NCBI GenBank assembly: GCA_035602465.1
Contig: DATNMQ010000149.1
Span: forward strand, 16,534-80,533
Direction of reading: 5' to 3'
From: Candidatus Sulfotelmatobacter sp.
GTDB lineage: Bacteria; Chloroflexota; Dormibacteria; Dormibacterales; Dormibacteraceae
Length of the DNA stretch: 64,000 nt
This document shows, in pieces, positions 8,386 to 47,261 of the stretch. The notes under the pieces were generated by a model. That model was not told where the DNA came from and did not search any database. It saw only the letters and a program-made list of their open reading frames with translations. Position numbers and translations under genes: made by a program. The stretch's first letter is position 1. Every line of letters starts with the position of its first letter.

Positions 8386-8461
8386 GCCCGCTTAGCTCAA
8401 TGGATAGAGCGCCTGACTTCGGATCAGGAGGTTGCGAGTTCGAGTCTTGCAGCGGGTACCA
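8386..8461 (+). tRNA. tRNA-Arg (anticodon TCG), CCA encoded
   Basis: GCCCGCT-TA-GCTCAATGGATAGAGC-G-CCTGA-CTTCGGA-TCAGG-AGGTT-GCGAGTTCGAGTCTTGC-AGCGGGT-A-CCA gives a cloverleaf with a G1-U72 wobble. Confidence 0.9.
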
Positions 8462-13063: not shown

Positions 13064-14014
13064 TCAGAGAAGCTCGATCTCCTCGAAGCCGCCGCGCTTG
13101 CGGGCATTTTCGACGACCACCGTGGCCGCGGCCAGATCCCACAGCGCGAGCCCGTGTGACTCGAAAAGGGTGATCCCGGGCCTGTCCGGCCGCTCCCACC
13201 GCCCCGCGACCACCGCACCCAGCTCGACCGCCTGGTCCCAGCCGAACCGGCCGGCCTCGTGGGCCTGGATCAGATCCCCGCACTCGAGCTTCGCCGCCGC
13301 CAGCTGATCGACGACCACGGTCTGGGCCCGCTCGACGAGCTCGATCGGCACCTCAACCCTGTTGCGGAAGTTCGAGCCGACCGCCGCCACCAGCGCATGA
13401 GGTTCCACCCAGGCGGCTTCGATGACCGGCGTGTGGCTTGTGGTGATCGTGACCACGATGTCCGCGCCCCTGACGGCCGCCTCTGCGGTGGGCGTGTCGA
13501 CGGTCCGAATGCCCAGCTGGCTCTCCTGCTCGGCGGCGAAGATCGCCCGCTTGTCAGCGTTGCGGCTGAAGACCCGCAGCTCCTTGATCTCGAGGACTTT
13601 GGAAAGCGCCAGCGCCTGCGTCGAGGCCTGCCAACCGGTCCCGATCAGGGCCACGGTCGCCCTGCTGGGCATGCCGAGGGCCCTGGCGGCGACCGCTGTC
13701 GCCGCGCCGGTTCGGTAGGCGCCCATGAAGTCAGCCTCGACCAGCGCCTGGAGCGCGCCGTCCAGCCCAAACATGACAACGAGGAAGCGGACGTGGCCGT
13801 CCGCCACCGTGTACGCCTTGAGTCCGGTGACGTTGCGCCCGGGGAAGGCGGCGAACATCACGTTGAGGAGCCCGCCCGGGGCGAACGCCCGCCGCCGCGG
13901 CTCGTTGTGCGCGTCGCCCTCCCCCAATTCCCGCATCGCCTGCTCGACCGCCGCGATCACCTCGTCCATCTCGATGAGCTCCTGGACGTCACTCTCGCGC
14001 AAGATCAGGGTCAC
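13064..14014 (-). CDS. ornithine cyclodeaminase / mu-crystallin family protein
   Basis: 316-aa ORF with a Rossmann segment (VALIGTGWQASTQALAL) and OCD-family overall layout. Confidence 0.8.
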   Translation of the reverse strand: MTLILRESDVQELIEMDEVIAAVEQAMRELGEGDAHNEPRRRAFAPGGLLNVMFAAFPGRNVTGLKAYTVADGHVRFLVVMFGLDGALQALVEADFMGAYRTGAATAVAARALGMPSRATVALIGTGWQASTQALALSKVLEIKELRVFSRNADKRAIFAAEQESQLGIRTVDTPTAEAAVRGADIVVTITTSHTPVIEAAWVEPHALVAAVGSNFRNRVEVPIELVERAQTVVVDQLAAAKLECGDLIQAHEAGRFGWDQAVELGAVVAGRWERPDRPGITLFESHGLALWDLAAATVVVENARKRGGFEEIELL

Positions 14015-14054
14015 GGCAGGGAGAATACCCGCCTAGTGATGTCACGCCTCCGAT

Positions 14055-14215
14055 GCTCCTTGCATATTCGCGACCTAGGCGGCCGGGCGCCTTCGGCGCT
14101 GAAGCCTGCGTCAAGGGGCCTGGCGCTGCGTCGTCACGCATCTGCCGATGCGCTCCTAGCCGCGCCACCCTTTCCTTGGCTCCGGCCGCCGATGTCGCGA
14201 AATATGCGGCGGAGC
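14055..14215 (+). promoter_or_regulatory. structured leader element, copy A (conserved core 14075-14193 plus outer helix), upstream of hom
   Basis: The core is near-identical to 30920-31062. Nested helices P0-P4 can be drawn (see findings). The 3' strand of the outer helix includes the GGAG at 14211-14214, which lies 9 nt before the hom GTG. Confidence 0.55.
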
Positions 14216-14223
14216 ACAGAGTC

Positions 14224-15522
14224 GTGACATCAGGCGCCCGCCCCGTCAATGTCGGCCTGATCGGCCTCGGCACCGTCGGATCGCAAGTCGCCGAAAGGAT
14301 GCTTTCGTGGCAGACGCAGCTGTCGCGTCGCGCCGGCGTCGAGCTTTGCCTGCGCCGAGTCCTCGTCCGCGACCTCGGCAAGCGCCGGACGATCGAGATC
14401 GAGCCCGACCTCCTGACCGCCGAGCCGGCCGATGTGCTCGAGGACCCCGCGATCGAGGTCCTGATCGAGGTGGCCGGTGGCGACGAGCCGATGCGCTCGT
14501 ACCTCGAGCGGGCGATCCAGGCCGGGAAGCACGTGATCACTGCGAACAAGGTCGTGATGGCCAAGCACGGCCCGGAGCTGCTCGACCAGGCGGCCGAGAA
14601 GAATGTCGACATCTACTTCGAGGCGGCGGTCGGCGGCGGCATCCCGCTGATCAGCACATTCCGCACCGACCTGCAGGCGAACCGGATCGAGAGCGTTTCC
14701 GCGGTGATCAACGGGACGACCAACTACGTGCTCGGACGCATGGCGTCGGCGGGCCTGTCGATGCGGGACGCCGTGCGTGAGGCGCAAGAGGCAGGTTATG
14801 CGGAGGCCGACCCGACCGATGACGTCGAGGGTTTCGATGCGACCTACAAGCTCGCGATCCTTTCCTCGATTGCGTACGAGATCAAGGTGCGGCCCGACGA
14901 GATCTATCGCGAGGGTATCGACGGCATCGAGCCCGTCGACTTTCGCTACGCGCGCGAGCTGGGGTTCGCGATCAAGCTCATCGCCCACAGCCAGCGGCAT
15001 CCCGGACGGGTCGAGGCGCGCGTCCATCCGGCCCTGGTTCCGCTGGACCATCCGCTCGCGCGCGTCGAGGGCGCGGAAAACGCGGTCTACGTGGAAGGCG
15101 ACCTGGTCGGCAAGGTGCTGCTCGTCGGCCAGGGGGCCGGTGGCAGGCCGACCGCGTCGGCTGTGGTGGGCGACCTGATCGACCTCGCGCGATCGATCCG
15201 GCGGGGTGTGCAGAGCCGGCCGTCGTTCAGCTTCGATGACCGGATCAGCGTCATCCCGATCGGCGAGGTGACGACGCGCGCTTACTACCGTCTCCGCGTC
15301 GACGACCGCCCCGGGGTGCTGGCCGCGATCGGTCAGGTTTTCGCCGAGGAGGGCGTGAGCATATCGAGCTTCATCCAGAAGGATGCTTGGTCGCACGATC
15401 AGACAGCCGAGCTCGTCGTGACCACCCACCCGTCGCTGGACGCGAGCCTGCAGAAAGCACGCGAACGCATGGCGCGGCTGGAGGCGGTGCGCGCCGTGTC
15501 CTCGTTCCTGCGCGTCTTCTGA
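14224..15522 (+). CDS. hom: homoserine dehydrogenase
   Basis: From the GTG at 14224 the sequence reads VTSGARPVNVGLIGLGTVGSQV (NAD-binding N-terminus) and ends with an ACT domain. The upstream part of ORF 14053.. covers the repeated non-coding element. Confidence 0.85.
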   Translation: MTSGARPVNVGLIGLGTVGSQVAERMLSWQTQLSRRAGVELCLRRVLVRDLGKRRTIEIEPDLLTAEPADVLEDPAIEVLIEVAGGDEPMRSYLERAIQAGKHVITANKVVMAKHGPELLDQAAEKNVDIYFEAAVGGGIPLISTFRTDLQANRIESVSAVINGTTNYVLGRMASAGLSMRDAVREAQEAGYAEADPTDDVEGFDATYKLAILSSIAYEIKVRPDEIYREGIDGIEPVDFRYARELGFAIKLIAHSQRHPGRVEARVHPALVPLDHPLARVEGAENAVYVEGDLVGKVLLVGQGAGGRPTASAVVGDLIDLARSIRRGVQSRPSFSFDDRISVIPIGEVTTRAYYRLRVDDRPGVLAAIGQVFAEEGVSISSFIQKDAWSHDQTAELVVTTHPSLDASLQKARERMARLEAVRAVSSFLRVF

Positions 15523-30859: not shown

Positions 30860-30881
30860 ACCGTAAGTTACCCTTCGCCTA

Positions 30882-31100
30882 GAGTGTCGCGGCTCCGAAG
30901 TTCCTCGCATCTTCGCTCGCTAGGCGGCCGGGCGCCGTTGGCGCTGAAGCCTGCGTCAGGGGGCCCGGCGCTGCGTCGCTGCCCCCGCGACCACGACGCG
31001 GGGACCCCAGCAGGTGATGCGCTCCTAGCCGCGCCGCCCCTTCCTTGGCTCCGGCCGCCGATCGAGCGAATCTGTGTCGGAAGTCGGAGCCGCGACACTC
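30882..31100 (+). promoter_or_regulatory. structured leader element, copy B (conserved core 30920-31062 plus a 17-bp outer helix), upstream of glpX
   Basis: The core is the same as at 14075-14193. The outer helix is GAGTGTCGCGGCTCCGA (30882-30898) paired with TCGGAGCCGCGACACTC (31084-31100). It contains the GGAG at 31086-31089, upstream of the glpX ATG at 31102. Confidence 0.55.
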
Positions 31101-31101
31101 A

Positions 31102-32106
31102 ATGATCGACGAGCCGAAGATCAATCGCAACCTGGCCCTCGAGCTCCTCCGCGTGACCGAAGCTGGCGCCCTGGCTGCGGCTCCGCTGCAGGGACGTGGC
31201 AACAAGGCAGCGGCGGACGCCCGCGCCGTGGAAGCGATCCGCTCGTCCCTCGCGACGGTCGACATGAAGGGTACGGTCGTGATCGGCGAGGGCGAGAAGG
31301 ACGAAGCCCCGATGCTCTACTTCGGGGAGAAGATCGGCAACGGCCTCGAGCCCGAGGTCGACGTTGCGGTCGACCCGATCGAAGGCACGAGCCTCACCGC
31401 CGCCGGCCTGCCGGGCGCGATCTCCGTCGTGGCTCTCGCCGAACGCGGCACGATGTTCACCACCCACGTCCACTACATGAAGAAGCTCGTGGTCGGCCGC
31501 AAGGCACGAGGCGTGATCGACCTCGAGATGCCGGTCGAGTGGAACCTCCGCCGGATCGCCAAGGCGGAAGGCCTGCCGGTGCAGGAGCTGACCGTCGTCG
31601 TGCTCGAGCGGGATCGCAACAAGGACGTGATCGCGGAGATTCGCTCGGTCGGAGCCCGCATCAAGCTCATCAGCGCAGGTGACGTGGCAGGCGCGCTCGA
31701 GGCAGCTCTCGAAACGCGCTTCGGAATCCATTGCATGATGGGCTCGGGAGGCGCGACCGAGGGTGTGCTTGCCGCGTGCGCCATCAAGACGATCGGTGGC
31801 GACATGCAGGCAAAGCTGTTCTTCCGCGACGACAAGGAACGCGAGTTGGCGATGGCGGAAGGCCACCGGCCGGACAAGGTCCTCTGTCTCGACGACCTGT
31901 GCTCGGGCAAGGACATCTTCTTCGCCGCGACCGGGATCACCTCGGGTGAGCTGCTCAAAGGCGTCCGATATGAAGACGTGTACGCCTATACGCAGTCGAT
32001 GGTCTTGCGCTCCGCCTCGGGCACGATGCGGATCGTCGACGCTTACCACCCGATCGACAACTTGCGGGCCAAAGGCTTGCTGCCGGAACAGGTCGCAATC
32101 CGCTGA
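31102..32106 (+). CDS. glpX: class II fructose-1,6-bisphosphatase
   Basis: From the ATG at 31102 the sequence reads MIDEPKINRNLALELLRVTEAGALAAA..., with DPIEGT, the MGSGGATEGVLAA motif, and GlpX length. Confidence 0.9.
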   Translation: MIDEPKINRNLALELLRVTEAGALAAAPLQGRGNKAAADARAVEAIRSSLATVDMKGTVVIGEGEKDEAPMLYFGEKIGNGLEPEVDVAVDPIEGTSLTAAGLPGAISVVALAERGTMFTTHVHYMKKLVVGRKARGVIDLEMPVEWNLRRIAKAEGLPVQELTVVVLERDRNKDVIAEIRSVGARIKLISAGDVAGALEAALETRFGIHCMMGSGGATEGVLAACAIKTIGGDMQAKLFFRDDKERELAMAEGHRPDKVLCLDDLCSGKDIFFAATGITSGELLKGVRYEDVYAYTQSMVLRSASGTMRIVDAYHPIDNLRAKGLLPEQVAIR

Positions 32107-47186: not shown

Positions 47187-47261
47187 TGGGGAGTGGCGCA
47201 ACGGTAGCGCAGCTGACTCTGGATCAGAAGGTTGAAGGTTCGAATCCTTCCTCCCCAGCCA
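47187..47261 (+). tRNA. tRNA-Gln (anticodon CTG), U1-A72, CCA encoded
   Basis: TGGGGAG-TG-GCGCAACGGTAGCGC-A-GCTGA-CTCTGGA-TCAGA-AGGTT-GAAGGTTCGAATCCTTC-CTCCCCA-G-CCA. Confidence 0.9.

Follow-up and report, generated by a model that had tools for sequence, protein, structure and literature searches.

MIRU elements are intergenic repeats that reside in operons and carry small open reading frames (ORFs) that overlap the stop and start codons of the adjoining genes (Supply et al. 1997, cited through PMC3184786), and that review describes units of 40-100 bp, often in tandem, with tetranucleotide direct repeats at the insertion site. ERIC, according to the same review (PMC3184786), is a hairpin-forming MITE (miniature inverted-repeat transposable element) that alters the fate of the mRNA. 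REP sequences are palindromes of 20-40 bp with a GTAG or CGTC tag at one end, found mainly downstream of genes or between convergent genes (PMC3733652). Here we analysed a 64,000-nt stretch of contig DATNMQ010000149.1 (the window), which its GlpX and Hom homologues place in Candidatus Dormibacterota, and examined a structured element in front of the homoserine dehydrogenase gene hom. This element (copy A) is one copy of a lineage-specific, dispersed, recently mobile and structurally constrained hairpin repeat of Candidatus Dormibacterota, which is located at gene starts and carries start and stop punctuation at its ends. A second copy (copy B) precedes glpX.

MIRU is the closest precedent for the coupling geometry discussed below, and the hairpin MITEs of the ERIC/Correia type are closest in form. 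The features shared with MIRU are the operonic intergenic position, frame ends overlapping the flanking stop and start codons, the existence of filled and empty sites, and G+C-rich internal inverted repeats. Unlike MIRU, our repeat consists of one ~195-nt hairpin whose core is branched and conserved, has no target-site duplication, occurs in both orientations and is also found between divergent genes. It resembles the ERIC/Correia MITEs in being an imperfect palindrome of ~100-250 bp, intergenic, presumably co-transcribed, present in both orientations and variable in length through internal insertion (PMC3184786). However, those MITEs have sequence-conserved terminal inverted repeats (TIRs), TA or other target duplications and many copies at gene 3' ends, whereas the present repeat has a variable outer stem with compensatory changes, no duplication, start-codon placement and terminal start and stop codons. 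With REP/REPIN sequences it shares G+C-rich palindromic modules within larger hairpins, vertical persistence, a conservation exceeding that of the surroundings and CTAG or CGTC tag-like motifs beside the stems, but it has five times their length, lacks their symmetry and is enriched in spacers between divergent genes. Riboswitch and T-box leaders are likewise structured over ~200 nt, lie upstream of coding regions in several copies per genome, contain a sequesterable Shine-Dalgarno (SD) sequence or start and covary strongly. In contrast to them, the repeat is not obligately in sense orientation, has unrelated neighbours, is gained or lost between near-identical genomes and has overwritten a start codon.

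Copy A, a short form, extends on the forward strand from the TAG at 14034-14036 to the last paired base of its outer stem at 14232, and copy B, a long form on the same strand, from the TAG at 30880-30882 to its outer-stem end at 31100. In copy A the stem end is formed by TGATGTCACG (14037-14046) paired with CGTGACATCA (14223-14232), in copy B by GAGTGTCGCGG (from 30882) paired with CCGCGACACTC (ending at 31100). Both copies matched the family profile in nhmmer (E = 2e-59 for A and 5e-44 for B), and blastn gave no third copy within the 64-kb window. A first-pass annotation, made from the letters alone, had placed a candidate cis-regulatory RNA at 14055-14223, with a recurrence near 30920-31062. 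All sequence blocks and helices that it quoted are present where it had put them, and the recurrence was borne out: the two longest common blocks have exactly two occurrences each in the window, where 0.03 (20-mer GATGCGCTCCTAGCCGCGCC) and 0.00 (22-mer TTCCTTGGCTCCGGCCGCCGAT) would be expected. Its core was right; the true span of both copies is longer. Its outer helix P0, described as specific to copy A, did not prove so, since blastn aligns 93 nt of the 5' arm of copy A with that of copy B at 86% identity; P0 is the variable but homologous outer stem of the repeat family. By minimum free energy folding each copy forms one long irregular hairpin (z = -4.6 for A and -7.0 for B), and none of 200 shuffles was as good. 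Copy B is longer because another small palindromic repeat is nested in the loop of its P4 (~30975-31015).

The outer stem of copy A takes in the start codon of hom (14224-15522, forward strand, 432 aa, Pfam), whose GTG is located inside the 3' arm. The SD-like GGAG at 14211-14214, 9 nt 5' of GTG 14224, was found as claimed. Because this GGAG and the hom start both lie in the outer helix, a cis effect of copy A on hom translation is plausible.

To recover the family, species-representative genomes were scanned with a pattern from the 3' half of the core and soil metagenomes with a pattern from its 5' half, and copies were then retrieved with nhmmer profiles. Among the species-representative genomes 56 loci matched, of which about 41 are true copies, all in Dormibacterota-type metagenome-assembled genomes (MAGs), with up to 5 per MAG. 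In the soil metagenomes the repeat was present at 116 of the 119 loci among the matches listed, so that family totals and per-site counts drawn from them are lower bounds. The family thus comprises at least 161 copies at no fewer than 124 distinct sites, virtually all of them from Dormibacterota MAGs and from soil metagenomes; viral contigs and plasmids were searched and yielded no copies, and literature searches returned no description of the repeat. Copies occur as single units without tandem arrays, and many are located at contig ends. Their lengths cluster at 193-197, ~215-220, ~233-238 and ~252-260 nt. The longer forms (214-260 nt) carry a copy of the second palindromic repeat in the loop of P2 or P4; they are nested insertions of another repeat and not helix expansions, which speaks against a sensory RNA. 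This smaller repeat (~45-50 nt, CCCCACGAAnTC...GAnTTCGCGGGG-ACCCC) also stands alone in intergenic DNA, at L113 8112-8160 and L116 1160-1221.

The genes next to copies include hom, glpX, pheT, rplA, hisG, alr, priA, recF, accD, a penicillin-binding protein (PBP) gene, pgm and ppx, and further metK-like and gltX-like genes. Their functions are diverse, unrelated and of the housekeeping kind. The first-pass annotation had proposed a leader specific for a threonine, methionine or aspartate operon. This cannot be maintained, since the repeat precedes many unrelated genes and is absent in near-identical relatives.

A consensus structure was derived from 62 short-form copies. It contains 55 pairs in 11 helices, with 95.6% of cells paired. 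Changes on both sides were observed in 34 of the 55 pairs, none of 500 shuffles reached the observed measures, and the covariation score was 0.19 compared with 0.03-0.05 for slid controls. Covariation thus gives this fold strong backing: the structure is real and evolutionarily maintained. The molecule is a rod-like hairpin of three parts, namely conserved termini N-AGTG...CACT-N', an outer stem of ~40 bp whose sequence varies while its complementarity is kept through compensatory changes, and a conserved branched core. Covariation was detected in the outer stem and in P1, P2, P2a, P3 and P4. In copy A the core occupies 14078-14190 on the forward strand and consists of P1 (14078-14086 with 14182-14190), P2 (14087-14091 with 14095-14099), P2a (AGCC 14103-14106 with GGCT 14178-14181), P3 (14113-14117 with 14168-14172), P3b (14122-14125 with 14163-14166) and P4 (14137-14142 with 14147-14152). 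P1 to P4 had all been recognised in the first pass and are covariation-supported in the 62-member consensus, while P2a had been overlooked. P3 pairs AAGGG with CCCUU, and its register is fixed by A-U to G-C changes. The earlier failure to recognise a known RNA family also stands: Rfam 15 gave no match at the gathering threshold and no credible match at E <= 10, as cmscan of the whole window (gathering threshold) and of both copies (E <= 10) returned only tRNAs and noise. A branched core with invariant unpaired nucleotides, strong covariation and no Rfam family are all properties that a new sensory RNA might display.

Across at least 124 sites, G·U pairs show no enrichment relative to A·C mismatches (54 vs 123 cells), and the C·A excess is confined to three outer-stem pairs where the GGGG of the 3' arm has changed to GGAG, GAGG or GGGA. 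Given this confinement, the comparison of G·U with A·C was discarded as uninformative about the transcribed strand. Pairing looks strictly Watson-Crick, which fits both-strand folding or a DNA-level constraint and gives no support for one transcribed strand; it counts in favour of a purely DNA-level repeat and against a sensory RNA.

Mobility was evident from four independent pairs of filled and empty orthologous sites. The neighbours identified with Pfam are an ornithine cyclodeaminase-family (OCD) gene on the reverse strand and hom-thrC-thrB-ask on the forward strand at copy A, and glpX on the forward strand behind copy B. The glpX site is empty in relatives whose GlpX is 98%, 95%, 94% and 91% identical, with a spacer of 24-70 nt; the repeat is absent at this site in L062, L063, L064, L005 and L001-L004. 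Likewise the hom site is empty in L065, L066 and L067 (98%, 96% and 90% identical Hom), where the start codons of OCD and hom are 20 nt apart. There the empty site reads cccgccTATGggcgcc, compared with cccgccTAGTGATGTCACG...CGTGACATCAggcgcc at the filled site of the window. The ancestral hom ATG was lost on insertion of copy A, and hom now begins from GTG 14224 in the 3' arm, giving 432 instead of 430 aa. Two more filled/empty pairs were present among the fetched loci, the cleanest being ggctgCAT|gcg|tttaat (empty) versus ggctgCAT|TAGAGTG...CACTCC|tttaat (filled). The empty sites show that 3-7 target nt are replaced on insertion, and their intergenic spacers are only 16-25 nt. No target-site duplication was detected, as flank matches of k = 2-5 at all offsets were not above shuffled pairings, and none of 186 loci contained an autonomous parent with an ORF splitting the core; partial matches there were contig ends or truncations.

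With at least 161 copies, at least 124 sites and four filled/empty pairs, the repeat shows the dispersal and the presence/absence polymorphism by which a MITE is recognised. Its termini AGTG/CACT are conserved and its arms complementary, but most of the ~40-bp arms vary with compensatory changes, unlike transposase-bound TIRs. Taken together, it differs from MIRU, ERIC/Correia and REP in size, in the branched conserved core, in arms that are variable yet complementary, in the lack of target duplication and in its strong preference for start-codon boundaries. At sites filled in several species the repeat is 90-97% identical while the flanks are 76-91% identical, and this higher conservation argues that old copies are constrained or homogenised; it also counts in favour of a sensory RNA.

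Several single loci deserve mention. The empty orthologues of the L018 site (L010 2355-2375 and L047 3693-3710) hold TTAGTGTCGC, which resembles the repeat 5' end TAGTGTCCCG; it may mark where a copy has been lost, may be a favoured target or may have arisen by chance. In L093, from another lineage, a copy is also located upstream of glpX and ends 8 nt before the ATG. It measures 233 nt with an insert in P2, while copy B measures 219 nt with an insert in P4, and the outer stem and the junction differ too, which suggests either repeated insertion in one spacer or an old diverged copy. The copy at L053 4683-4873 ends after the core with its 3' arm gone, and is directly followed by a coding-like …LGDNQYGKAETHV resembling the N-terminus of urate oxidase.

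The placement of the repeat relative to genes was then evaluated per site, with gene strands in the 240-nt flanks called by the difference between GC3 and GC2 (the G+C contents of third and second codon positions). The repeat lies in sense between co-directional genes (++) at 32 sites and antisense between co-directional genes (--) at 9 (p = 4e-4), and between divergent genes at 20 sites compared with 2 for convergent genes (p = 1e-4). At 64 sites the right-flank gene is on the + strand, at 16 on the - strand. Hence the repeat is found directly upstream of genes far more than by chance. A sense bias and an upstream position would suit a regulatory leader, but the antisense copies at 9 of 41 co-directional sites and the two convergent ones indicate that sense orientation is not obligate.

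The contact with the neighbouring genes is close at both ends. At 45 of 46 sites the upstream co-directional gene has its stop codon -8 to +3 nt from the repeat 5' end, and this stop is formed by flank and repeat together (T|GA, T|AA, TA|G, |TAG or AG|TGA). The start codon of the downstream co-directional gene lies -10 to +4 nt from the repeat 3' end in 35 of 64 sites; the called starts are supported by ten such downstream proteins, whose Pfam domains open at residues 1-10. A gene that reads away from the repeat 5' end starts at 0-4 nt in 26 of 43 cases, and 21 of the 28 abutting 5'-side junctions read CACTC-TA-ATG, -TA-GTG or -TG-ATG, i.e. a stop overlapping a start. The left flank is enriched for T/TA, with CTAG or TTAG in about a third of copies, and has no counterpart on the 3' side. 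The annotation had stated that its proposal would fall if the element were a REP- or MITE-type repeat with many copies in random orientation and position. The copy number and the mobility are indeed of that type, but the position is not random.

The ends of the repeat are matched by a reading frame that passes through it. The GTG within the 5' AGTG is kept in more than 90% of copies, and the frame that it opens is free of stops across the whole consensus, the conserved stop motifs CTAG, CTGA and CTAG all falling in one other frame. In copy A this frame covers 63 codons plus the stop (14036-14227, forward strand, in the frame of ORF 13259-14227 of the ORF list). Its GTG at 14036-14038 overlaps the TAG at 14034-14036 (TAGTG), and its TGA at 14225-14227 overlaps the hom GTG at 14224-14226 (GTGA). 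In copy B the ORF list gives 73 codons from GTG 30884 to 31105 on the forward strand, ending in a TGA (31103-31105) that overlaps the ATG (31102-31104) of glpX (ATGA). glpX itself, encoding class II fructose-1,6-bisphosphatase, spans 31102-32106 on the forward strand (Pfam); its start was read from the sequence, and its 334 aa equal the length of the homologues.

Repeat length followed orientation. A length of 1 mod 3 was observed in 17 of 22 '++' sites and in none of 8 '--' sites (p = 2e-4), and in 7 of 21 sites of other configurations (p = 0.006 against '++'). The through-frame was associated with an abutting downstream start (counts 18/4/6/13, p = 0.0016), and its stop overlaps or abuts the next start in 14 of 22 '++' sites as well as in both window copies. 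In three 194-nt '++' copies that do not have the frame, the next start is 11-52 nt off. The variability of alignment columns shows no codon periodicity (0.48, 0.50, 0.54). Therefore the openness of the frame, and not the peptide, appears to be constrained, and a protein-coding small gene was ruled out on the same ground.

A promoter at the hom/OCD junction was considered as well. The OCD gene occupies 13064-14014 on the reverse strand (Pfam), diverging from hom. Sequence comparison revealed a -10-like hexamer GAGAAT (14022-14027, forward strand), which is located 8 nt upstream of the hom ATG in the element-free relatives and 8 nt upstream of the copy A GTG in the window; its complement TATTCT is 7 nt upstream of the divergent OCD GTG. 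These overlapping hexamers, 7-8 nt upstream of each start, are seen at 14014-14036 of the window and at 1980-2001 of L065, L066 and L067. The arrangement suggests that OCD and hom are both leaderless in the element-free relatives. As GAGAAT keeps its 8-nt spacing, now to the GTG of the repeat, a leaderless message may begin with the copy A frame, an account that would apply locally, to copy A only. A promoter and terminator scan of both copies gave nothing, with no full sigma-70 consensus site. A -10 box as a family-wide feature, either within the repeat (TAGAGT at the 5' end) or at leaderless distance before it, was rejected, as the flanks carry no conserved -35; TANNNT occurs at the right distance in only 2 of 37 divergent or antisense sites, and the GAGAAT pattern is not general.

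On these grounds we favour a mechanism of translational coupling. The repeat would be co-transcribed with its neighbours. The GTG of its 5' AGTG would overlap or abut the stop of the upstream gene, or, in copy A, would take the place of the destroyed hom ATG behind GAGAAT. Ribosomes would then translate a meaningless frame of ~64 codons, melting the hairpin, and terminate on a stop codon that shares bases with the following start (GTGA at hom, ATGA at glpX), where they would initiate anew. If the frame is not translated in this way, the closed hairpin would mask the G-rich tract that resembles an SD and, in the case of hom, also the start codon; for this reason downstream expression would be coupled to translation entering the repeat. 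In effect the upstream gene, or a leaderless 5' end, would pass its ribosomes via the repeat to the downstream gene. The hairpin with its core is probably also the recognition target of a mobilising enzyme.

We consider it probable, on the whole, that the repeat is a non-autonomous mobile hairpin made 'translationally transparent' by coupling, with no ligand sensing implied. The evolutionary part of this proposal is more tentative, and we put it at slightly below even chances: a mobile hairpin may have evolved such transparency by integrating at starts and stop-start junctions, beginning with a start, staying open and ending in a stop over the next start, and in the reverse orientation by the conserved CACTC-TA-ATG, so that ribosomes are handed through.

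Several points weigh against this favoured explanation. Two of the three consensus frames are open, and some through-frames are therefore expected by chance. The length-class signal could stem partly from subfamilies (194 vs 196 nt) with different insertion histories. The gene calls in the loci come from a simple in-house method based on GC3, and we infer translational coupling from geometry alone. The lack of G·U enrichment would be uncommon if selection acted on the structure solely as a single RNA strand, and the high conservation of unpaired core nucleotides is left unexplained by the coupling model. Among the loci examined no transposase, target-site duplication or autonomous parent was found, and a replacement of 3-7 nt per insertion fits no standard transposition chemistry.

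The strongest competitor is a selfish repeat acting solely at the DNA level, either REPIN/RAYT-like or descended from IS200/IS605, whose hairpins would be recognised as single-stranded DNA, with placement and frame reflecting the survival of insertions in a very compact genome. Besides the strict Watson-Crick pairing with no wobble preference, it is supported by the absence of target-site duplication and by the one-sided T/TA of the 5' flank, which recalls target-specific insertion by a short motif. The three CTAG motifs and the CGTC motifs beside the hairpins, the assembly breaks at copies and the short spacers (16-25 nt) at empty sites are in line with it as well. However, most REPs are located downstream of genes or in convergent spacers (PMC3733652), opposite to the 20 divergent and 2 convergent sites found here, and survival filtering alone does not explain why convergent spacers, the safest sites, are nearly empty. 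Nor does it account for the link between frame-preserving lengths and orientation. No RAYT or TnpA gene was seen beside any copy, although no systematic search was made. IS200/IS605-derived elements (PATE) lack target-site duplications and insert 3' of a fixed short target motif; in our repeat duplication is absent and T/TA is enriched in the left flank, and TA is missing from the target at two of three clean empty sites. Weighing both sides, we regard this explanation as unlikely.

A further explanation is an RNA processing or stability element between cistrons or in the 5' untranslated region, where an RNase III or RNase E site would separate or stabilise messages, possibly giving rise to near-leaderless mRNAs. 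The ~40-bp outer stem, in which GCAUCUUCGCG faces CGCGAAUCUGC in a conserved internal loop (UC/UC), and the position between cistrons, directly before starts, would suit such a site, and hairpin MITEs such as ERIC offer a precedent in altering mRNA cleavage and stability (PMC3184786). This proposal would account for neither the terminal start and stop codons, nor the length-class bias, nor the conserved core beyond the stem. We consider it improbable. Neither this explanation nor that of the DNA-level repeat excludes the coupling model.

Equally doubtful is a metabolite- or factor-sensing cis-regulatory RNA with a regulon, for which the outer helix would be a platform sequestering SD and start: although an SD-like tract and a start codon do lie in or beside the outer stem, this riboswitch reading fails on orientation, gene content and mobility, with downstream genes that have no common pathway, presence/absence between near-identical relatives at four sites and a start codon destroyed by insertion. 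Nothing points to the ligand-sensing two-state switch that the first pass had imagined. An integron attC site was also dismissed. attC sites have R''/R' core sites RYYYAAC ... GTTRRRY and stand in co-oriented cassette arrays beside intI, whereas the termini here are AGTG/CACT and the flanks are syntenic housekeeping genes conserved in relatives that do not have the repeat.

Some observations concern gene calling and labels. Longest-ORF logic would start glpX at TTG 31045 inside the repeat, in place of the true call at ATG 31102 that matches the 334 aa of the homologues, and the longest hom ORF opens at ATG 14053, likewise inside the repeat. Gene callers are therefore likely to mis-start genes behind these repeats. 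L038, L047, L054 and the protein P0121 belong to the same lineage, yet are labelled Limnocylindrales, Acidoferrum, Nitrosotalea or Sulfotelmatobacter, and a 100% identical Hom is labelled Sulfotelmatobacter in one MAG; these odd labels probably reflect contamination or error in MAG binning. Three tRNA genes in the window (Rfam; 1768-1850 on the reverse strand, 8386-8458 and 47187-47258 on the forward strand) are unrelated to the repeat.

Our results document a family of repeats from a phylum for which MAGs are the only source. These repeats break assemblies, alter start codons, as at hom, and can lead gene callers astray; when Dormibacterota and soil metagenomes are scanned automatically, this abundant structured motif should not be called a riboswitch. 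Insertion with small target replacements and no target duplication could represent an unfamiliar insertion chemistry. If coupling is true, the repeat would show a way for selfish DNA to persist within operons whose genes overlap, and would constitute a natural, portable module for hairpin-gated translational coupling. In that case it could spread through tightly packed operons without breaking them, leaving dozens of genes under hairpin-gated coupling.

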